NCBI GenBank assembly: GCA_964501355.1
Contig: CAZCSM010000002.1
Span: 5,884 to 69,883 of the forward strand
Source of the DNA: an uncultured Candidatus Saccharibacteria bacterium
Lineage (GTDB): Bacteria > Patescibacteriota > Dojkabacteria > CAZCSM01
DNA: 64,000 nt
Reading direction: 5' to 3'
The notes beneath the pieces are model-generated. The model searched no databases, was not told where the DNA came from, and was given only the letters and a program-made list of their open reading frames with translations. This document shows positions 1,754-48,668 of the stretch, one piece after another; position 1 is the stretch's first letter, and every line of letters starts with the position of its first letter. Position numbers and translations under genes: made by a program.

Positions 1754-3172
1754 TCATTTCTTTTTCAACATTCTTCTAACTAGTTTGAATGGTGCCGAGA
1801 AAAGGTTCTTTTTTAATAATAAAGAGAATAATCCTAGGATTATAATAATTCCTCCTCCAAGTGCAACTACAATGCCAATTACAATGTAAATCCAATTTTG
1901 ACTTAAGAAATCTTGAATTTGTTTAACTAAATCACTTTCGGTAATCACCGGCGCAGTGTATGTTATTGAGCCTTCTATTTTTCCGAACTCTCCATCTTCA
2001 TTTTTTGCATAAGCTTCAATCGTGTTTCTCCCTTCGATTAATTGAACCTCTTGTGCAAAATCTCCATTTTCATCAAATTCGACTTTTATTTCTTCGTCAT
2101 TTAACACAATAAAAACATCAGATGAAACATCAGAAACGGTTCCTTCAATTGTCAAAATGCCTGTTTCTAGATTTACGTAATCTTGAAAGTTATCTAGATT
2201 AGTCTTCAATGTCGGTTCCAATTTTACTTCAATCTTCTCGCCTTCATGTTCCTTAATAACTTCCGGTGTTAGTTCAACTTTCTTTTCACCGGTTTCCGTT
2301 TCAGTAATTTTGTAATCATCCGTTCCAAGGACTGCGCCATTAAGCGTAACGGCAGAATCTTCAGTATATTGATCTTCCGTATCGTAGAAAGTAACCTCGA
2401 CAGGAGCTTCCCAGATCGCCCAGAATTCCCAACTCATCCAGAAAAACATATATTCAAAACCAACATTATTATCCAAATTTTTCACCGCATTTTCGGCTGT
2501 ATCCGTTGACATATCTACATCTCCAAGAAATGTCATCATTGATAAATCCTGTCTATCAAGGGTGAAGTTACTTACGCTTGCTGGGTTCTCTATTTTACTT
2601 AAATCGGTCGTATTAGAACCTTCGAAGAAGAACCATTGATTTATTTCAATATCAATTATTGTAATGTCTACAACAATAATCGGCGCGGGCGTTGGTGAGG
2701 GTGTCGGAGTAGGTGTTGGTGTAGGAGTTGAAGTCGGCGTTGGTTCTGGTTCGGGTGTTGGTACAGGATCGGGGTATTCCTGTTTTTGATTAACCGTAAA
2801 CCAACCATCAGATTTGTCGTTTAAACTTCCTGTCCCCGTTTCGTAACCCGTTAAATCAATAACGTATTGAGTGTTTGTCGTATTTCCAACATCAACTTTC
2901 CAGGAGTAGGATCCAGTGTTTGGAGCTGTGAAAGCGACCCAATCAAGATGACCAGGTCCATGTGAGTAACCAATTGAAACTTTATCTATGTTTGGAGATG
3001 TTTTCCAAGTGATAGTCATCATGTCTCCTTCCGTATACACTTCTCCGCCATTTGGAGATGTTATTGTAACAAATCCATCAATCGCTGCGAAAGCCTTCTG
3101 GGCCGGTATTAGCACCAGCATGTTGTTTGCAATAATCAGCGCAACCAAGAACATTTTTAATAATTTCTTCAT
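1754..3172 (-). CDS. secreted/cell-surface protein with signal peptide, Pro-Thr-rich linker and C-terminal TM anchor plus Lys/Arg tail
   Basis: N-terminal MKKLLKMFLVALIIANNMLVLIPAQKAFA signal-like segment; PTPEPEPTPTSTPTPTPTPTPSPTPAP linker; C-terminal hydrophobic helix then KKNLF..RRMLKKK. Confidence 0.7.
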   Translation of the reverse strand: MKKLLKMFLVALIIANNMLVLIPAQKAFAAIDGFVTITSPNGGEVYTEGDMMTITWKTSPNIDKVSIGYSHGPGHLDWVAFTAPNTGSYSWKVDVGNTTNTQYVIDLTGYETGTGSLNDKSDGWFTVNQKQEYPDPVPTPEPEPTPTSTPTPTPTPTPSPTPAPIIVVDITIIDIEINQWFFFEGSNTTDLSKIENPASVSNFTLDRQDLSMMTFLGDVDMSTDTAENAVKNLDNNVGFEYMFFWMSWEFWAIWEAPVEVTFYDTEDQYTEDSAVTLNGAVLGTDDYKITETETGEKKVELTPEVIKEHEGEKIEVKLEPTLKTNLDNFQDYVNLETGILTIEGTVSDVSSDVFIVLNDEEIKVEFDENGDFAQEVQLIEGRNTIEAYAKNEDGEFGKIEGSITYTAPVITESDLVKQIQDFLSQNWIYIVIGIVVALGGGIIIILGLFSLLLKKNLFSAPFKLVRRMLKKK

Positions 3173-4592: not shown

Positions 4593-5879
4593 ATGAAGGT
4601 ACTTTTTAATCCGATGGGTGGGTCTCTTGCACATACCGTAAGGTGTATAGCCGTTGCAGAAGAACTGAGAGATCGAAAGCATGAGGTTTTTTTTACAGCT
4701 CCGCGAGATCAGATTGCATTTATAAAAGATCAGGGTTTTGAAGTTGTCGGTGATTTTGAAGTTGTAAGCTTTACCGATCCTGAAGATCAATCCTTGAATT
4801 ATATGGAGTCGAATAAAGACAAGTTCGTTGAATGGTTTAAGACAGAAATTGCTGCTGTCGATATGATTAAACCAGATGTCGTCGTTACTGCGCCGGGATT
4901 TCTTGGTTCAACAATCTGGCATGCGAGAAAAATTCCCAATGTGGCTATTCTCGACTCTGTGTATACTTATAAATCAAAAGGAATTCTAGGACTTTCCTTA
5001 TCAGATGATAGTGTCAAGAGTGTTGTTTTAAGAAGATTAATACAACCGGTTTTTGAATCGAAATTCTATGAGTTGTACATTACTCAAGTATTGGATATTT
5101 ACAACCGGTTGGGTATTTCAACGGAAAATGTTAAAACCCGAAAGGATGTTCAATCCTTTACAAAAATTATTGTTCCCGGAGATTCACAACTTGAAGTCCT
5201 TAAAGATAATTTAGATCAGGATATTATTCATGTTGGTCCAATTTTTTGGAAGGGGTGGGAGGAAATGGAGACCCGTTTTACGGATGATTACATATTAAAT
5301 TTTAAAAAGAATAATTTCTTGGTAGGAGTATTCTTTGGTGGTAGCGTTCACGATAGAAATATCTATGAAAATGTCATAAATACGTTCAAGGATAACGCAG
5401 CAAACATGAAAGTTATAATTGGTTTTGGTCCCAATTACAAAAGATCCGATTTCCCTGCAGATAACGATAAGATTTTGTTCTCTAAATACCTACCCGGACT
5501 TCGAATCTCAAGGCATGCTGATCTCATTGTGAATACGGGAGCCCAGGGAGGAACTTCGCAGGCCCTTTATTATGGAAAGCCTGTTATCGCTTTCCCAACT
5601 AATATTGACCAGTCTTATTACGCGAATAGGCTTGAGGAGTTAAAACTGGGAATCAATGTTAATAAGGTTAAGCTTTCAGAATTCTCGAAGAGAGAGTCTT
5701 ATGCAAACGTGGATGATACAATTTCAGATAAGATTATTAACGCAATTAATAAAATCAGAAAGGATATTAAATATAAAGAGAGGGCGGTCTGTTTTTCAAA
5801 GTTTTTACAGAATACGTACCATGATCCCGTTCATGCTTCTGCAGATATAATTGAGGATATTGTTAGAAATGGTCTTTGA
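4593..5879 (+). CDS. GT1-family UDP-glycosyltransferase (MGT/OleD-like, GT-B fold)
   Basis: N-terminal NPMGGSLAHTVRCIAVAEELRDRKHEV and C-terminal GAQGGTSQALYYGKPVIAFP donor-binding motif typical of GT1. Confidence 0.7.
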   Translation: MKVLFNPMGGSLAHTVRCIAVAEELRDRKHEVFFTAPRDQIAFIKDQGFEVVGDFEVVSFTDPEDQSLNYMESNKDKFVEWFKTEIAAVDMIKPDVVVTAPGFLGSTIWHARKIPNVAILDSVYTYKSKGILGLSLSDDSVKSVVLRRLIQPVFESKFYELYITQVLDIYNRLGISTENVKTRKDVQSFTKIIVPGDSQLEVLKDNLDQDIIHVGPIFWKGWEEMETRFTDDYILNFKKNNFLVGVFFGGSVHDRNIYENVINTFKDNAANMKVIIGFGPNYKRSDFPADNDKILFSKYLPGLRISRHADLIVNTGAQGGTSQALYYGKPVIAFPTNIDQSYYANRLEELKLGINVNKVKLSEFSKRESYANVDDTISDKIINAINKIRKDIKYKERAVCFSKFLQNTYHDPVHASADIIEDIVRNGL

Positions 5880-8100
5880 GATCTTCTTTTTAGGAATAAT
5901 ATTAGCGTTTAACCTCGTCGTTATTTTTACCTTGCTTTTTGCTGAAACACAAAGGTTTAAGGAATCTCGTAAGTGGTTTGTTCTGCTAAATATATTTGTA
6001 GTTTTCTGGGTGTTATCCATTTTTATAACCGATATGTTTTACGATCTCACGATAGTAAGTCTGTGGGCGTCTAGAACTTCTTTTCTCTTCTCAATATTTA
6101 TAGCTTTTTTTCTTTATCGATTTGTTAAGAGTTATCAGAAAACGATTCTGCCTATCTGGGATTTTTGTGGAATATTATTTGAAATATTCAGTATAGTTTT
6201 TGGTGTTGCTTCACTGACGAAGTATAACATTTGGGGAGTTGTTGTGCTTGGTGAAAATAGTTTGAAGTCGGAAGTCGGATTTCTTTATCAATTTATTTCC
6301 TTATTTATTTCTATATATTTTGTTTTTTCAATTGCACTTTTCTTCAAGATTTACAAGGAAGAACGAAATCTTTCTCTCAAGACACAAATAGGCAATATCT
6401 TAATAGGGAGTACCTTGTCAATCTTCTCTTCCTTGGTAACAAATATTTTAATGCCGATGTTAGGTTTTCCTGAAATTCGATTTCTAGGTCCATTAGCATT
6501 AGGATTTTTTCTGTTCTTTACCTACTTCTCAATGCTTCGGGAACGATTCCTTGGGACGAAACAGATGCTCTACAACACCATTTATACATTTCTCTTCGCA
6601 CTGGTCCCATACGCAACCTTCCACATCATAGTATTCTTACAAAATATGATTTGGGGAAGTGTTTTTGAAACAGGTGCTTTGATAACAGGATTCTTTTATT
6701 CGTTAATTTTTTTATATGTTTTTAAGGCTGCGGGCAAATGGCTCAGTGTATTTGTAAAAGGATATGTTTTGAATTATCAATACGATCCTCTAGAGCAGCG
6801 AGATCGGTTTTTGGAAAAAACCAGAAACATTCTTGATATAAATGAATTGATTTCGGTTTTGAAAGAATTTGTAGATAATGTTGTTCGTCCGGTCAAAAGC
6901 TGGGTTGTTTTGAAGCCTCAATATCAAATAACGAATGAAGATTTAAAAAGTTCTGATTTCGGCTTTGGTAAAATCAATGGTTTGATAAAGGAATCTGAAT
7001 TGAAATTGCCATTGATTACTGATGAATTATTTGTAAAACACATTGAAGGAAAACACGAGTCTGAAGCTGATCCTAAATTTCAGCTTTGGAAGTTCTTGGA
7101 CATCAATAATATCCGAGCTGTATTATCTGTGAAAGATAAATCCCGTATTTATGGATATCTTGTGCTTGGTGAATTAAAGAGCGGTTCTGCGTATAGTGTT
7201 GAAATCGTAGAGCTCTTGGAGTTCTTGATTGACAATACGGCAATGGCAATTAACCGTGCACTTTTGTATCAAAAGGTAAAAAACTTTAATAAAATTCTCG
7301 TGGATGAAATCGAATCCGCTACAACACATCTTGCGGAAGCGAATGCTGAGCTTCGTAAGGTTGATGAAGCAAAGGACGATTTAATCTCAATTGCATCTCA
7401 TGAACTTCGAACACCTGCAACAATTGTAAAAGGTAAACTTCATTTGCTTAAAGGACGCGTTGCAAAATTAAAGGTTTGTGAGGGCTATGATCCCAAGATT
7501 GATAATGATATTGATGTTTGTCTATCTGCAATAGAAAGAGAGATTGAACAGGTAAACACTCTTCTTGAAGCTTCAAGGATTGGTAAGGACACGATGGTTT
7601 TGGACAAACAACTTTTTGATTTATATGATGTAGTTGAACAGGCAGTTGAAGATTTTGAAGGCATTGCAGCAGAGCAGGGACTTGAATTAACGATTGAGAA
7701 AACTGTGAAAGATTTACCTTTTGTGAATATTGATGTTCGACGTATCCGGGAAGTAATTGATAATCTAATCACCAATGCCATTAAGTATACAGAAGAAGGT
7801 TCAATAAAAGTTCGCGTATTTCAAAAAAATGCGAGAGAAATTAGTGTTAGCTTCACTGACACAGGAATCGGTGTTCCTAAAGAAAAGTTAGATCGACTAT
7901 TTACGAAGTTTTATCGTGTGAGGAACGATGAGGAAAATCGTTCTAAATTAGTAAAGCCGGGAGGAACTGGTCTTGGTCTCTTTGTTGCAAAGAACATTGT
8001 TGAAAAACATGGCGGAAGTATTTCCGTAAAGAGCGAAGAGGGGAAGGGATCCGTGTTTACTTTCTGTCTTCCTGTAAGCAGGAAGGATAATGTTGGGTAA
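5851..8100 (+). CDS. membrane sensor histidine kinase (multi-TM N-terminal sensor, HisKA, HATPase_c)
   Basis: ~8 TM helices in first 300 aa; H-box SIASHELRTP; G-boxes GGTGLGLFVAKNIVEKHGGSISVKS; overlaps upstream gene by 29 nt. Confidence 0.8.
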   Translation: MRILLEMVFEIFFLGIILAFNLVVIFTLLFAETQRFKESRKWFVLLNIFVVFWVLSIFITDMFYDLTIVSLWASRTSFLFSIFIAFFLYRFVKSYQKTILPIWDFCGILFEIFSIVFGVASLTKYNIWGVVVLGENSLKSEVGFLYQFISLFISIYFVFSIALFFKIYKEERNLSLKTQIGNILIGSTLSIFSSLVTNILMPMLGFPEIRFLGPLALGFFLFFTYFSMLRERFLGTKQMLYNTIYTFLFALVPYATFHIIVFLQNMIWGSVFETGALITGFFYSLIFLYVFKAAGKWLSVFVKGYVLNYQYDPLEQRDRFLEKTRNILDINELISVLKEFVDNVVRPVKSWVVLKPQYQITNEDLKSSDFGFGKINGLIKESELKLPLITDELFVKHIEGKHESEADPKFQLWKFLDINNIRAVLSVKDKSRIYGYLVLGELKSGSAYSVEIVELLEFLIDNTAMAINRALLYQKVKNFNKILVDEIESATTHLAEANAELRKVDEAKDDLISIASHELRTPATIVKGKLHLLKGRVAKLKVCEGYDPKIDNDIDVCLSAIEREIEQVNTLLEASRIGKDTMVLDKQLFDLYDVVEQAVEDFEGIAAEQGLELTIEKTVKDLPFVNIDVRRIREVIDNLITNAIKYTEEGSIKVRVFQKNAREISVSFTDTGIGVPKEKLDRLFTKFYRVRNDEENRSKLVKPGGTGLGLFVAKNIVEKHGGSISVKSEEGKGSVFTFCLPVSRKDNVG

Positions 8101-8136
8101 AATTGTGCAATAATAGTGTAAGATGGTTTTTGATAG

Positions 8137-8508
8137 ATGGTTAGTAACAAATCTCTAAAATTTGAAGATTTGGAAGTTTGGAAACTTTCTCAAACGTTAT
8201 TCCTAGAGCTGTCGGATATCTTTTATTTGAAATCTTTCCACAATTACTCTTTCCAAGATCAAATTATGAGAGCAGCAATTTCTATTAGTAATAATATTGC
8301 CGAAGGTTATGGACGTGGTGGGAAAAAGGAGCTTATCCGATTCTTGTTTATAGCCAAAGGTTCATGCGAGGAAGTTAAGAATATGATATATTTGGCGTTT
8401 TCTTTAAAATATATCTCGGAAGAACAGAAATTGGAATTTTTGCAGAAAACGACACAATTGAGCGTAAAGCTTAATAATTTTGTCAATTATTTAAAGAAAA
8501 AGGTCTGA
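8137..8508 (+). CDS. four-helix-bundle protein (TIGR02436 / 23S rRNA intervening-sequence protein family), copy 1 of 3
   Basis: 123 aa; motifs LEVWKLSQ..., ISISNNIAEGYGRGGKKELIRFLFIAKGSCEEVKNMIYLA shared with paralogs at 39080..39463 and 45574..45936. Confidence 0.75.
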   Translation: MVSNKSLKFEDLEVWKLSQTLFLELSDIFYLKSFHNYSFQDQIMRAAISISNNIAEGYGRGGKKELIRFLFIAKGSCEEVKNMIYLAFSLKYISEEQKLEFLQKTTQLSVKLNNFVNYLKKKV

Positions 8509-8580
8509 TATATTTTTCAACAGTCTTCTCTCAACATTACACAATGTTACACTATATTAAACCATTTTACACAACTTATT

Positions 8581-12524: not shown

Positions 12525-12700
12525 CCTATTCAGAATTTCACCTAAATGTATTTCTTTAACAATATGTTAACAATATATTATTCCTTGGATACCTTGACAA
12601 GGGTCTTCTTTGTTTTTTCTCGTAGGCAGGAGAAATTTAATTGTTAATCCTTCCATCTTCATTTACAATGTATATATTAAGTTATGGTCTTCCATTGAAT

Positions 12701-13060
12701 ATGAATTCTAAGAAATCCTTAAGTGATACGAAAATAGTCGTTGACGGAAATGGTGTACATGTAGTCGAAGATTCTACGAAAAATAAAATACTACTAATTT
12801 CCATCGTTGTAATAATCTTCGTCGTTAGCATTGGATTGATCGCCTGGGTAGTAATAAAGGAAAACTATTACCGAGAAGAGGAAATTCAGGTCAAAAGATT
12901 TCCTGGCCAAGCTGAAGAATTCGTTGCACAGAACGACAAACAGGAGACTTTATTATTAGTTAAGGATGAAATTGACACAATAGAATCTGATATTGAAGAG
13001 TTTTATTCTTTGCTTAATGATAAAGATGCAAATGAATATGGGGTATTGTTAATTAAATAA
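12701..13060 (+). CDS. small single-pass membrane protein, hypothetical (start placed at internal ATG MNSKKSL)
   Basis: TM helix ILLISIVVIIFVVSIGLIAWVVI then acidic tail; ORF track start at 12641 is a non-ATG codon. Confidence 0.4.
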   Translation: MNSKKSLSDTKIVVDGNGVHVVEDSTKNKILLISIVVIIFVVSIGLIAWVVIKENYYREEEIQVKRFPGQAEEFVAQNDKQETLLLVKDEIDTIESDIEEFYSLLNDKDANEYGVLLIK

Positions 13061-13093
13061 TTTAAGGAATATTCTGTGGAGAATTTGGTCTTA

Positions 13094-21169: not shown

Positions 21170-21390
21170 GTAAGTAAATTACAAATTACAAATAACAAAT
21201 AAATCTCAAATCACAAATTCAAAATACCAAACAATACACACTACTGTTATTAACAAGATTATTTAGATTCGTTCTTGATACTTCTACAACCTCAGTACAA
21301 GTTTTTGAATTTTGGTAATTTTTAGTGAGCTCATCAAACTATTGTAATTTGTTTGGAAATTGAAATTTGGAATTTGATGCTTAACCACAA
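21170..21390. repeat. AT-rich modular inverted repeat pair upstream of GT2 gene (modules caaat/ccaaacaat ... atttgtttggaaattgaaatttggaatttgatgctt), no ORF between the arms
   Basis: right arm 21345-21390 matches arms at 42055-42100 and 45960-46000; left arm is a degenerate reverse copy. Confidence 0.5.
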
Positions 21391-23144: not shown

Positions 23145-23495
23145 ATGAATGAATTCTTAACATATCAAATAATAATTTTTGGATTTTGTGCTTTACAAGC
23201 TCTCCGTAGTATTTGGAAATTAATTAAAGGGAAAATTGATTTTCGTGAATTATTGTTGGCGATAATAATTTGGAGTGGGTTTGCAACACTTGGTCTTTTT
23301 CCAAATCTTTCAACTGTGATTGGTAAATATTTAGGTTTTGAACTAGGTATTAACTTTCTGTTAGTTTCGGCTGTTTTGTTCTTATTATTCTCTACTTTCA
23401 GTCAAAGTTTAGAAAATGAAAAGACGAATAATACTGTTACGAAGCTAGTTAGACATTTGGCGATTGAGGAGTTTAGTCAAGGTTTAAAGAAATAA
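23145..23495 (+). CDS. small 3-4 TM membrane protein, DUF2304-like partner of Dpm1-like GT2
   Basis: 116 aa, hydrophobic helices; immediately follows the Dpm1-like GT2, as DUF2304 genes do. Confidence 0.45.
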   Translation: MNEFLTYQIIIFGFCALQALRSIWKLIKGKIDFRELLLAIIIWSGFATLGLFPNLSTVIGKYLGFELGINFLLVSAVLFLLFSTFSQSLENEKTNNTVTKLVRHLAIEEFSQGLKK

Positions 23496-39014: not shown

Positions 39015-39079
39015 ATTTAAATTGGTTGGAGATTGTTAAAACATTGATAAAACATAGTTCAAACGTTGTTGAAACGTAG

Positions 39080-39463
39080 TTACAAATTTTTAGATAAATA
39101 TTTAATCAAGTTACTTATCTTCACTGATATGGTAACACAATTCTTTCGAAGTTCTTCTGATTTTGCAGAACCTATAAAGTTTTGATTCTCTGCAATATGC
39201 AACATGCTTCGCACTTCTCCGCAAGATCCTTTGGAAATGTATAAGAATCTTATAAGTTCTCTGTTGCTTTGTCTTTCGTAACCTTCAGCAATGTTATTGC
39301 TTATTGATAAAGTTGCTCTTAATATCTGATCTTTGAAATAGTAATCCCTAAATTTCTTATCTCCAAATATCTGAGATATGTCTATGAATAATTGTATTCC
39401 TAACTGCCAAATTTCTAAATCTTCAAAATTTGTTTTACTATGTTTGATCGATGTTTTATCCAT
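39080..39463 (-). CDS. four-helix-bundle protein (TIGR02436-like), copy 2 of 3, inserted between wzm and wzt
   Basis: LEIWQLGIQLF..ATLSISNNIAEGYERQSNRELIRFLYISKGSCGEVRSMLHIA; flanked by inverted repeats aaaacatagttcaaac / gtttgaaactatgtttt. Confidence 0.75.
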   Translation of the reverse strand: MDKTSIKHSKTNFEDLEIWQLGIQLFIDISQIFGDKKFRDYYFKDQILRATLSISNNIAEGYERQSNRELIRFLYISKGSCGEVRSMLHIAENQNFIGSAKSEELRKNCVTISVKISNLIKYLSKNL

Positions 39464-39543
39464 GTTTGAAACTATGTTTTATCTTTACAATGAAAGCGCT
39501 TCGCTAGATCCTTCGTTGCACTCTGGATGACACTGTTTGTTAT

Positions 39544-41924: not shown

Positions 41925-41959
41925 TTATAATTTCAAAGTGATACTAGTTTTTTAAGAAA

Positions 41960-42145
41960 TTCCAAATTCTAAATTACAAATATCAAATAAATTACAATAT
42001 ATAAAATCTCAAAATAATTATTTGTAGGTTTTGTGATTTGGCGAATTAATGTTTGAGATTTGTTTGGAAATTAAGATTTTGGATTTGGTGCTTTAAGATA
42101 ATGATTCTTATACATGGATTCCGTGTCGAGCACGGAATGACGATT
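41960..42145. repeat. AT-rich modular inverted-repeat pair with ~35-nt spacer (no cargo) followed by one gatcccgtgtcg-type palindromic unit, immediately upstream of GT4 gene
   Basis: aaattccaaattctaaattacaaatatcaaata ... gagatttgtttggaaattaagattttggatttggtgcttt; then ggattccgtgtcgagcacggaatgacg at 42116-42142. Confidence 0.55.
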
Positions 42146-45473: not shown

Positions 45474-45530
45474 TTTCTCTTAAATGCGTTAATTATATAA
45501 TAACTCTTTAAGAAATAAGGAGGCCTTGAT

Positions 45531-45570
45531 ATCAAATTCCAAATTCTAAATAACAATTTCCAAACAAATC
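45531..45570. repeat. left AT-rich modular arm flanking the four-helix-bundle gene (contains caatttccaaacaaat)
   Basis: reverse complement of module atttgtttggaaattg found in right arm at 45965-45980. Confidence 0.55.
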
Positions 45571-45573
45571 ACA

Positions 45574-45936
45574 ATGACCAAAATCTCAAATAACAAACAA
45601 TATGATTTAGAGGAAAGAACTTTAGAATATGGTAAGAGAATTGTTAGATTCTGCAAATCTTTATCAAAAGATAAAATAAATTCTAGACTTTGTGATCAAT
45701 GTTTGCGCTCTGGAACATCTATAGGAGCGAATTATAGAGAAGCAAATGAAACAGAAACAAAAAAGGACTTTTTGTTTAGGATGAGGATATCTCGAAAGGA
45801 AGCAAAAGAGACGATTTATTGGTTACAATTAATAACAGAAGCAAATCTAGAACTAGAAAATAAGATTAAACCTTTGTTAGAAGAAACTTCTGAACTTCTA
45901 AAAATAATTTCGAGTATAATCGAGAAGTGTAAATAG
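45574..45936 (+). CDS. four-helix-bundle protein (TIGR02436-like), copy 3 of 3, between inverted AT-rich arms
   Basis: 120 aa; GTSIGANYREANETETKKDFLFRMRISRKEAKETIYWLQLI parallels paralogs. Confidence 0.7.
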   Translation: MTKISNNKQYDLEERTLEYGKRIVRFCKSLSKDKINSRLCDQCLRSGTSIGANYREANETETKKDFLFRMRISRKEAKETIYWLQLITEANLELENKIKPLLEETSELLKIISSIIEKCK

Positions 45937-46000
45937 TTTAGAATTTTGAATTTGTTATTTGATATTTGTTTGGAAATTGAGATTTTGGATTTGGTGCTTT
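45937..46000. repeat. right AT-rich modular arm (tttagaattttgaatttgttatttgatatttgtttggaaattgagattttggatttggtgcttt)
   Basis: near-identical to 42055-42100 and 21345-21390. Confidence 0.6.
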
Positions 46001-46046
46001 TTATTAAGTTTTGTATTTTGTGAATTGTTAATAAGTTTAATGCTAT

Positions 46047-47201
46047 ATGAAAGATTATAAAGTCGCTCTCGTTCATGATGATCTTCTCCAGTACGGTGGA
46101 GCTGAGCGTGTGCTTGAAGTAATGCATGAGATTTGGCCGGATGCTCCAATTTACACCTCGCTATATGATAGAGAAGAGATGTTAAAAAGGGGCTGGAACG
46201 ATGATGGAATGGATATTCGGACTAGCAAGTATCAATGGTTACCGTGGAAGGCAAAATTCGGCAACAAGTTCTATCTCCCAATATTTCCACTCGCTTTTGA
46301 ATCATTTGATTTTTCAGAATACGATCTTGTGATTTCGTCATCAACAAGGTTTGCCCATGGCGTTATAACGCGACCCGAGACTTGTCATATTAGTTACTGT
46401 AACTCACCCGCAAGATTTCTCTGGATGTATCCTGATTATGAAAAGGGACATGGCGGGATTAAATCTTGGCAGAAGCTTCTTCTAGCGCCGATTCTTCATT
46501 GGCAAAGAATTTGGGATCAATTAGCTTCCCAACGGCCGGATTTTTTCTTTGGGAACTCATCTACGTCAGTTGCAAGAATTAATAAGTTTTTCAGACGTTC
46601 TGCAGAAATACTTTTTCCTCCAGCAGATGTTTCCAATTTTCTCCCAAAGCAAAAGGTTGAAAAGAAAAATTATTATGTCATTGTTGGAAGAATGGCAGGG
46701 CACAAAAGATATGATATTGCTGTTGAAGCCTTTAACAAACTTGGCTCTGATTATGAGCTTCGCTTAATCGGTTCCGGTGATAAGCTTGAAGAACTTAAAT
46801 CTATGGCAAAAGAGAATGTTAAATTCTTAGGTTTTGTTAGTAATGAAGAACGTGAAAAACAGGTCCAAGAAGCAAATGGGTTTCTTTACCCGCAGCTTGA
46901 AGATTTCGGGCTAACGGCTGTTGAAGCAAATGCTGCAGGAACACCGGTTGTTGCTTATGGAAAAGGTGGTGCTCTTGATACTATTGTTGATGGGAAGACT
47001 GGTGTTTATTTTTCTGAACAAACGTCCGATTCTTTGGTTGATGCTATTAAACGATTTGAGAAAATGGCTTTGAGTGCTGATGATTGTATAGAAAATGCAA
47101 AACGATTTGATAAGGAAATCTTCAAGTCGAAGATGAAGAAACGTGTAGAGGAAATGTTTACAGAGTATCGTGTTGATTATGGATCTAGGAAGAAATCATA
47201 G
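46047..47201 (+). CDS. GT4-family glycosyltransferase (paralog 1 of a tandem pair)
   Basis: KVALVHDDLLQYGGAERVLEVMHEIWPDAPIYTS...VAYGKGGALDTIVDGKTG; 384 aa. Confidence 0.7.
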   Translation: MKDYKVALVHDDLLQYGGAERVLEVMHEIWPDAPIYTSLYDREEMLKRGWNDDGMDIRTSKYQWLPWKAKFGNKFYLPIFPLAFESFDFSEYDLVISSSTRFAHGVITRPETCHISYCNSPARFLWMYPDYEKGHGGIKSWQKLLLAPILHWQRIWDQLASQRPDFFFGNSSTSVARINKFFRRSAEILFPPADVSNFLPKQKVEKKNYYVIVGRMAGHKRYDIAVEAFNKLGSDYELRLIGSGDKLEELKSMAKENVKFLGFVSNEEREKQVQEANGFLYPQLEDFGLTAVEANAAGTPVVAYGKGGALDTIVDGKTGVYFSEQTSDSLVDAIKRFEKMALSADDCIENAKRFDKEIFKSKMKKRVEEMFTEYRVDYGSRKKS

Positions 47202-47223
47202 TGTGTTCTAGAAAAATTGGTTA

Positions 47224-47362
47224 TGTTACTTTTGCAAACAAAAGTAACCAAAATTTCTGAAACAAACCAGTTCCGACAAATAGCAATCCGATACAATTAA
47301 CTACCGGAATGGCCCGTTTCAGACTTCATCGGTTAACAACCTAATACAAATAACAAGGGGAA
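47224..47362 (+). ncRNA. copy D of repeated structured element family; its 3' AAGGGG doubles as the ribosome-binding site of GT4 gene 47364
   Basis: gttacttttgcaaacaaaagtaacc hairpin, helix ctgaaac..ttccg / cggaa..gtttcag, caaatagcaatccgatac, tail ctaatacaaataacaaggggaaa-ATG. Confidence 0.5.
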
Positions 47363-47363
47363 A

Positions 47364-48503: not shown

Positions 48504-48668
48504 AAGGTTTTTATGAGATAATTTCTAATTACTAATATCTAATTTCTGAACAAATTCAAAATATCAAATCCCAATCCTTGTTTAGATTAATTAGGTTAAT
48601 TAGGTCAATTAGAAATTTGGATCGAACTGTATGACGTTATATTATTAAAATAAACATAAATTACTTAC

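Follow-up and report, generated by a model that had tools for sequence, protein, structure and literature searches.

The stretch of DNA analyzed here, hereafter the window, comprises 64,000 nucleotides (nt) of contig CAZCSM010000002.1 from an uncultured Candidatus Saccharibacteria bacterium, and the subject of this work is a small gene in it which encodes a four-helix-bundle (4HB) protein and is placed between AT-rich inverted arms. The gene with its arms, referred to as element 3, lies between a response regulator (RR) gene and a GT4 glycosyltransferase (GT) gene, in a cluster with the order histidine kinase (HK), RR, GT, GT and sugar transferase. Its parts are as follows.

45510-45999, forward strand: the whole of element 3 (5' arm, 4HB gene and 3' arm), from a two-copy comparison
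45525-45590, forward strand: 5' arm, G-poor, of degenerate CAAAT-type heptamers, with CAATTTCCAAACAAAT (45554-45569), the motif AAAT-N4-ATG and the start codon at 45574
45574-45936, forward strand: 4HB gene, 120 aa, of the PF05635/TIGR02436 or 'S23p' family
45937-45999, forward strand: 3' arm, C-poor, of ATTTG-type heptamers, with the cross-phylum 22-mer ATTTGTTTGGAAATTGAGATTT (45964-45985) and the terminal TTTGGTGCTT

The ends were set by the extent of similarity, from AAGAAAT... to ...GGTGCTT, with a gene-less copy at 41954-42093, so that the boundary is inferred from two copies, compared without a near-identical empty site. As the sequence-only reading of this DNA had proposed, the gene is bracketed by inverted arms: over 61 nt, 74% of the positions in 45525-45585 are complementary to 45948-46008, the best local pairing joins 45539-45590 with 45945-45994, and the 5' arm extends past the ATG over the first few codons. 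The two sequences quoted for the arms in that reading, CAATTTCCAAACAAAT and its exact complement ATTTGTTTGGAAATTG, are indeed found at 45554-45569 and 45964-45979. With no or one mismatch this 16-mer occurs in the window only at 21347, 42058, 45554 (reverse strand) and 45964, and with up to three mismatches it matches 12 times in the window, where shuffled sequences give 4.76 +/- 2.0 and none of 100 shuffles reaches 12. What had been described as modules of the arms are degenerate tandem heptamer units, as the lag-7 identity reaches 0.494 where 0.347 would be expected (z = 12.6), with z = 7.1 at lag 14. In the 521-nt sense transcript of element 3, the minimum free energy structure pairs both arms (z = -4.2). 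No promoter-like or terminator-like site above chance was found around the element, and Rfam, searched with the window at the gathering threshold and with seven loci at E <= 0.1, matched no family. A scan of the window for G-poor and C-poor runs was dropped as too noisy because of the genome-wide GC skew. Elsewhere in the window, 18 nt at 23177-23194, within the start of a DUF2304 membrane-protein gene, match the right-arm end TTTTGGATTTGGTGCTTT at 17/18, probably by chance.

The protein of element 3 matches PF05635 at E = 8e-19 and TIGR02436 at E = 4e-25. Its AlphaFold2 (AF2) model has four helices with a pLDDT of 91, and Foldseek returned for it 2rld and 2gsc (Xcc0516) as the best matches and then Avd (4dwl), the accessory protein of diversity-generating retroelements (DGRs), at TM 0.7-0.8; a PADLOC search gave no defence-system match. 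Compared with its homologues, the gene has a nonsynonymous difference (pN) of 0.10-0.23 against a synonymous one (pS) of 0.8-0.9, where synonymous sites are saturated, and the arms are 80-94% identical over 35-58 nt, against 46-54% for third codon positions. As judged from these substitution patterns, the protein is under strong purifying selection and the arm core is conserved better than the synonymous sites of the gene, so that both are constrained.

The GT gene downstream of element 3 (46047-47201) has close orthologues in several contigs, and the orthologous intergenic regions could thus be compared. In three contigs with the same cluster order (L051-L053, GT 80% identical), the successive spacers are 40, 12 and 16 nt against 573, 162 and 166 nt in the window, and in a fourth (L055, GT 69% identical) the RR-GT spacer is 12 nt; hence RR-GT spacers of 12-40 nt stand against the 573 nt that contain element 3. 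In L049/L050 (GT 92% identical), the RR-GT site is occupied by a 4HB gene of another subtype with different arms, 56% identical to that of element 1 of the window (see below) and 32% to that of element 3. In one further genome (L042 and L085), there is a 4HB element on both sides of the GT gene together with a truncated third, and its L085 spacer shows, in what can be read from the sequence, serial insertion and decay. Moreover, the arm type of element 3 is found with the gene in other contexts (L040, L056, L066, L073, L085), for example in L040, where an 87%-identical 4HB gene with such arms has a PilM-like gene on one side and an unrelated gene on the other. Further 4HB genes are found between prgI and traC-like genes and in the spacers that separate lemA from an M48 peptidase gene and a CCA-adding-enzyme-like gene from dnaN. 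Related genomes differ in whether the insertion is there, and from these alignments the arms and the 4HB gene behave as a discrete unit, which orthologous sites have or lack as a whole.

Some details of these spacers are given for completeness. In L085 at 1700-1990, the C-terminal half of the third 4HB gene, a pseudogene remnant, directly follows an intact element. The 3' end of L042 and the 5' end of L085, contigs of one sample, meet within the right arm with a 31-nt overlap, and as both contigs end inside the same arm, the arms evidently break assemblies. The spacer between the two GT4 genes of the window (47202-47363), of 162 nt against 12 nt in L051, contains no heptamer-type hairpin and no 4HB remnant. 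The 40-nt 'empty' RR-GT spacer of L051 (1974-2013) begins with TAGTTTCCAAAAAATAA, similar to the arm core TTTCCAAACAAAT; the likeness may reflect a footprint, a preferred target or coincidence. When the arms of the g1/g2 subtype were compared between loci, no significant similarity was seen (scores 16-17).

The window contains three hairpins of this kind with no gene inside.

41954-42093, forward strand: gene-less copy of the element 3 type, 140 nt (fold z = -2.4)
21172-21382, forward strand: gene-less copy with left arm 21172-21250 and right arm 21342-21382 (fold z = -2.2)
48518-48622, forward strand: a fourth hairpin, gene-less, with TAATTAG-type units and a related but distinct arm type (fold z = -3.0)

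The recurrence of the right arm, which had been noticed from the sequence alone, is borne out at 42052-42094, matching 45958-46000 at 41/43, and at 21347-21382, matching at 32/36. In the first copy, 41957-42013 matches 45534-45590 at 47/57 with the first codons included and the ATG changed to ATA, the left-arm part 45534-45556 matches 41957-41979 at 22/23, and about 367 nt of element 3 are absent between the two matching ends. The second copy has the exact 16-mer at 21347 and an unrelated centre of about 100 nt. In line with the lack of an ORF noted between their arms, neither copy has a stop-free stretch of more than 43 codons or a detectable 4HB remnant. The hairpin at 48518-48622 is upstream of a sugar transferase gene, and its right arm is identical at 36/39 to the arm beside the truncated 4HB gene of the relative L085. 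Overall, the fold z-scores of the hairpins range from -2.2 to -6.4.

Because the gene-less copies keep the region of the 4HB start codon, they look like internal-deletion derivatives. In fact, the motif AAAT-N4-ATG(A/G)CCAAA is common to three gene-bearing elements (element 3, L040 and L042) and is retained in gene-less hairpins of a gammaproteobacterial metagenome-assembled genome (MAG), a Desulfosarcina MAG and a metagenome contig, while it occurs only once elsewhere in the 703 kb searched. The sequence matches thus make the gene-less hairpins homologous to both ends of the 4HB element, and internal deletion of elements would give rise to bare hairpins; with intact elements, a truncated 4HB gene and bare hairpins together, the cluster holds all three stages. 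Beside the heptamer hairpins, a second and GC-richer family of short hairpins was noticed in expanded spacers, such as ATTCCGTG-TCGA-GCACGGAAT at 42117-42139, and hairpins of a GC-richer GTGTC...GACAC type are found in L049 at 1640-1750 and 2920-3010.

Besides that of element 3, two other PF05635 4HB genes are present in the window, each with its own arms, and the arm sequence differs among the three elements.

8087-8579, forward strand: element 1, with 4HB gene 8137-8508 and arms 8087-8127 and 8541-8579, between a histidine kinase gene and an epimerase gene
39036-39470, reverse strand: element 2, with 4HB gene 39080-39463 and arms 39442-39470 (with the ATG) and 39036-39064, inserted between wzm-like and wzt-like ABC transporter genes

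The start codon lies within the 5' arm in elements 2 and 3, and all three elements are co-directional with both neighbours. We scored each of 56 window genes for inverted repeats by the best local complementarity of its start region to its stop region, and the 4HB genes take ranks 1, 2 and 3 (scores 47, 38 and 38; median 18), for which the chance is 1 in 27,720. The tendency is not confined to the window, since for 15 4HB loci chosen by protein alone, eight of them on cyanobacterial plasmids, the median score is 57 against 19 for control ORFs (open reading frames; p = 2.4e-5). Rank 4 belongs to a 139-aa ORF at 12641-13060, with inverted repeats at 12531-12564 and 13044-13076 (score 34), which has weak Wzz/TssO-like matches and is not a 4HB protein.

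These controls bear on the view that there is no element at all, only local slippage of heptamers in AT-rich spacers, with a complementarity due to low-complexity composition. Heptamer repeats are over-represented in many bacteria with a copy number variable between strains (PMC4692102; PMC4990558), and the arms here are only 74-80% complementary with a neutral spectrum of mismatches. However, the inverted repeats are specific to 4HB genes both in the window and at the 15 loci, the arms and the gene are gained or lost as a block, and a non-repetitive 22-mer and the ATG region are common to distant phyla, all of which make this view highly improbable.

As to this 22-mer, the exact right-arm sequence (ATTTGTTTGGAAATTRARATTT) was found at 12 loci in species-representative genomes and at 25 metagenome loci. 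Some of these matches, in AT-rich coding DNA, look like chance, while most have the same architecture, with a G-poor heptamer arm followed by a C-poor arm. Such hairpins occur in MAGs of Desulfobacterota, Gammaproteobacteria, Nitrospirota, Verrucomicrobiia and Patescibacteria, often with GC-rich flanks, and at four distinct loci (L004, L009, L026 and element 3 of the window) a 4HB gene is just upstream of the 22-mer; the sequence of L009 recurs in L016/L021, and element 3 is also on L001/L002. In other phyla the 22-mer adjoins recO, recR-like and ribosomal-protein-like genes, and it is even seen inside a 16S rRNA gene: in L020/L035/L038, 144 nt inserted into the tip of a 16S rRNA helix form the gene-less hairpin, which by this position is an rRNA intervening sequence (IVS). 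On present sequence comparison, the 4HB element resides in a variety of unrelated contexts and in many phyla, with a 16S helix tip among its sites. Viral sequences contribute little, with only two distant 4HB loci on viral contigs and two in phage records.

Two of these loci showed other features. The 16S genes of L038/L035 and L020 are 1619/1620 identical apart from a 309-nt insert at position 67, which has inverted ends (gccccgccacttt and aaagtggcgg) and, on inspection by eye, seems to carry what is left of the C-terminal part of a GIY-YIG-like ORF; this population therefore has two rRNA insertion polymorphisms, the second unrelated to the hairpin. In L010 at 7300-8000 (CAVURJ010000002.1, a 'Moranbacteria' MAG), very GC-rich coding DNA is followed by an AT-rich hairpin and then by AT-rich DNA, which looks like a chimeric join at a cross-phylum repeat.

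Such a spread is to be set against an explanation by host regulation, in which the hairpins are operator, attenuator, mRNA-processing or stability sites for the GT cluster and the 4HB protein is a regulator. In its favour, a sugar-transferase gene follows each of the four hairpins of the window at 46-122 nt, conservation of the arm core exceeds that of synonymous sites, and the start codon is sequestered in the predicted stem. However, the window is simply dense in GT genes, orthologous clusters do without the hairpins, neither a promoter nor a terminator signal is present, and the same arms occur in unrelated contexts and in rRNA. The sequence-only reading had itself named an operator of GT genes at fixed spacing as the alternative to be feared, and this is not borne out: the same 22-mer stands beside the recO, recR-like and ribosomal-protein-like genes and in 16S, and the distance from the right-arm end to the next start codon, varying within the 46-122 nt range, is not fixed. 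We thus regard host regulation as quite unlikely.

When plasmids were searched by tblastn, 4HB genes were found mainly on those of cyanobacteria, and near-perfect inverted heptamer arrays bracket the 4HB gene in 7/8 of the cyanobacterial plasmid copies inspected. The arrays are as follows.

Nostoc punctiforme pNPUN02 and N. flagelliforme: (CAATTCG)4 / (CGAATTG)4, for example 35/36
Aulosira: AAATTCA units
Nostoc HK-01: GGTCGGA units
Dolichospermum: TAATTCG units
Planktothrix: AATCCCC and AATCGTA units
Nostoc UHCC 0870: a 50/51 inverted repeat
Anabaena cylindrica pANACY.01 (L079, NC_019772.1, 155585-155932): the eighth copy, with a weaker inverted repeat, on the opposite strand between cas2 and cas1

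Earlier reports are said to place 23S_rRNA_IVP near cas genes, which the last of these copies may explain. Among homologous plasmids, the locus of the pNPUN02 copy is found in three states, namely without an ORF (L087, L088), with an intact 139-aa ORF (L089), and with this ORF interrupted by the element (L077).

The sequence-only reading had called the locus MITE-like, that is, similar to a miniature inverted-repeat transposable element, and this stands in part. Like a MITE, the gene-less copies are short and non-coding with inverted ends, occur in several copies and look like internal deletions of a gene-bearing parent, and the block insertion and the insertion polymorphism agree with it as well. 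Unlike a MITE, they show no target-site duplication, either at the window junctions, which are approximately defined, or at the filled and empty pair of Nostoc; the parent encodes only a 120-aa 4HB protein and no transposase, the ends are fuzzy, variable heptamer arrays, and the closest relative is the IVS. A true MITE or DNA transposon, with the arms as terminal inverted repeats for a transposase from another locus (such as a RAYT-like Y1 enzyme, RAYT being the transposase associated with repetitive extragenic palindromes, REP) and with the 4HB gene as a passenger, would account for the small size, the several copies per genome, the gene-less derivatives, the presence and absence polymorphism and the contig breaks inside the arms, and in L012 a Y1_Tnp gene is 230 nt from a heptamer hairpin. 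However, this Y1 transposase gene is flanked by different palindromes, which are GC-rich, and no second one occurs in the roughly 700 kb of fetched loci, the ends are not fixed and no junction carries a duplication, and a 4HB gene conserved together with the arms under strong purifying selection is unlike a passenger, so that we consider this origin unlikely. The RAYT as the mobilizer was rejected, as the sole Y1_Tnp is that of L012 with its different palindromes and none is found elsewhere in the fetched loci or the window. In L012 at 5320-5980 and 6190-7160, the RAYT-like Y1 transposase gene is flanked by its own palindrome GTAGCGCCATGAGATCTCATGGCGCTAC, and heptamer hairpins stand on both sides of recO, its neighbour. 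The REP and REPIN systems with RAYT are likewise intergenic hairpin repeats of many copies tolerated within operons; the present arms differ from them in being AT-rich and 40-70 nt long, not GC-rich palindromes of 20-40 nt, and in having no associated RAYT. As for integron cassettes, neither a GTTRRRY core nor an integrase was seen by reading the sequence, with no dedicated search made, and the arms flank the ORF on both sides.

Compared with known systems, the element comes nearest to the IVSs of rRNA. The IVS of Coxiella is a selfish element of 428 nt, located in the 23S rRNA at helix 45, with inverted-repeat borders and a stem in which RNase III cleaves, and its S23p ORF, which follows tandem GACAGAT heptamers and a poor ribosome-binding site, has been judged decaying and untranslated (PMC4990558). 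In rRNA genes of the candidate phyla radiation (CPR), 23S_rRNA_IVP ORFs are found at several insertion sites (PMC11270868), and the sporadic distribution of IVSs suggests horizontal transfer (PMC4990558; PMC11270868). With the IVSs that bear an S23p ORF (Coxiella burnetii, Leptospira, Xanthomonas and Brucella), the present element shares the PF05635 gene in the loop and a long stem of inverted repeats, and moreover, as in Coxiella, the tandem heptamers closely preceding a start codon whose ribosome-binding site is poor, the sense orientation of the ORF with the host transcript, the existence of ORF-less versions, and a sibling of the window arm in the tip of a 16S helix. It differs in that the window copies are between protein-coding genes, with no rRNA found in the window, and in that its protein is under strong purifying selection while the Coxiella ORF is decaying.

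From these results we conclude, with a probability of roughly 0.6, that the locus is a member of a widespread class of small insertion elements, in which a pentamer-type PF05635 4HB gene is placed within inverted arrays of degenerate heptamers, and more specifically that it represents a 4HB element of the IVS type, with heptamer arms and a place outside rRNA. To judge from the rRNA IVSs, the element is probably transcribed together with the host genes, since it is usually co-directional inside operons and has no recognizable promoter or terminator. In the transcript the arms would pair into a long stem rich in A-U and G-U that hides the 4HB start codon, and this stem may be a substrate of RNase III, as has been found by experiment for the rRNA copies in Coxiella, Leptospira and Salmonella; such processing would make the insertion tolerable in rRNA and in operons. 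As for how it was inserted, the junctions as sequenced suggest illegitimate or replacement-type insertion rather than cut-and-paste transposition.

Several observations, however, weigh against this conclusion or against parts of it. With regard to simple insertion, in L077 the middle of the 139-aa ORF, about 300 nt, has been replaced by the 4HB element, and the precisely mapped filled and empty junctions on the Nostoc plasmids show no target duplication. The heptamer unit is wholly different among closely related cyanobacterial proteins (GGTCGGA and CAATTCG), and about 1/3 of the sampled 4HB genes are not co-directional with both neighbours. As to the stem, the mismatches of the arms have no strand bias (37 are G-U-compatible in one sense and 36 in the other, along with 138 transversions), RNAalifold on 14 elements found neither a consensus long stem nor covariation, because the pairing register differs between copies, and young-looking copies are perfectly Watson-Crick complementary, which cautions against a view based on the RNA stem only. 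The unbiased mismatches, the varying register and the perfect young copies suggest that the arms are made complementary at the formation of a copy and then drift, and thus the pairing may be produced at the birth of a copy and decay afterwards, not being maintained by selection on an RNA stem.

Two ideas on the arrays were considered and given up. A recognition code from protein to heptamer is doubtful, because near-identical cyanobacterial proteins carry unrelated units; telomere-like addition at the 3' end, with the G-rich strand always outward, was rejected because the polarity is reversed in element 1 of the window, L082 and L084.

The likeness of the protein to Avd leads to one more explanation, of a retro type, in which an Avd-like pentamer recruits a reverse transcriptase (RT) encoded elsewhere and the hairpin RNA released by RNase III would be copied and re-inserted. 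The fold matches Avd of the DGR RT complex at TM 0.7-0.8, both being of the same four-helix-bundle fold and superfamily (PMC10053308), PF05635 is the commonest DGR-associated family (PMC10053308), and insertion without duplication and with replacement of target DNA, as well as arms near-perfect when young, would fit. However, no RT gene is next to any of about 25 elements examined, and unlike in DGRs there is no RT, template repeat or variable repeat beside the 4HB genes of the window. This explanation seems very unlikely to us.

Returning to the IVS-type element, its arms also resemble repeats known from other bacteria. Heptameric tandem repeats of cyanobacteria, the short tandemly repeated repetitive (STRR) sequences, are said to have been described by Mazel et al. 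in 1990. Like these and the Xanthomonas heptamers, the arms consist of tandem 7-nt units that are intergenic inside operons and often in inverted pairs capable of stem-loops; the known repeats are transcribed, as the arms probably are. Moreover, AATCCCC units flank the Planktothrix 4HB gene, and the head-to-tail units which are degenerate in the window are perfect on cyanobacterial plasmids; what differs is that most arrays of the Nostoc chromosome are unpaired. In Xanthomonas, GGGAATC heptamers form 70-75 convergent pairs (PMC4692102), and the heptamers of Xanthomonas and Nostoc have been treated as possible quadruplex or simple-sequence motifs with no mention of 4HB or IVS (PMC4692102; PMC4679880). 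Within the literature searched on heptamer repeats, intervening sequences and 4HB proteins, only the Coxiella paper was met with for these subjects in combination (PMC4990558), and no description was met of 4HB elements outside rRNA, of gene-less derivatives or of a general link to heptamers.

In eukaryotes, foldback transposons have long inverted termini of short tandem repeats, with an internal gene or none; the resemblance is by analogy only, as they belong to another domain of life with no homology. A bolder proposal, which we put forward as tentative, is that PF05635 genes with inverted heptamer arrays make up a single pan-bacterial class of foldback-type selfish elements, which would unite the ORF-bearing and ORF-less IVSs, the heptamer repeats of cyanobacteria and Xanthomonas, inverted pairs among them, and the orphan genes, thousands in number, annotated as 'four helix bundle protein', with the Avd-like pentamer as a propagation or maintenance factor acting on the arms.

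For further study, there are handles in the cultured Nostoc plasmids with filled and empty sites, in a purifiable protein and in mutable arms, and in practice the arms are conserved across phyla enough to break or mis-join metagenome contigs. For about 30 years no explanation has been given for rRNA IVSs and the S23p ORF in them, 'four helix bundle protein' is among the commonest uncharacterized annotations in bacteria, and heptamers are the most over-represented long simple repeats of bacteria. As the element ties together these three widespread genome features, it is of above-average interest: the locus and the comparisons made from it indicate that IVSs, 4HB genes and heptamer repeats belong together, as a unit that comes and goes inside operons.

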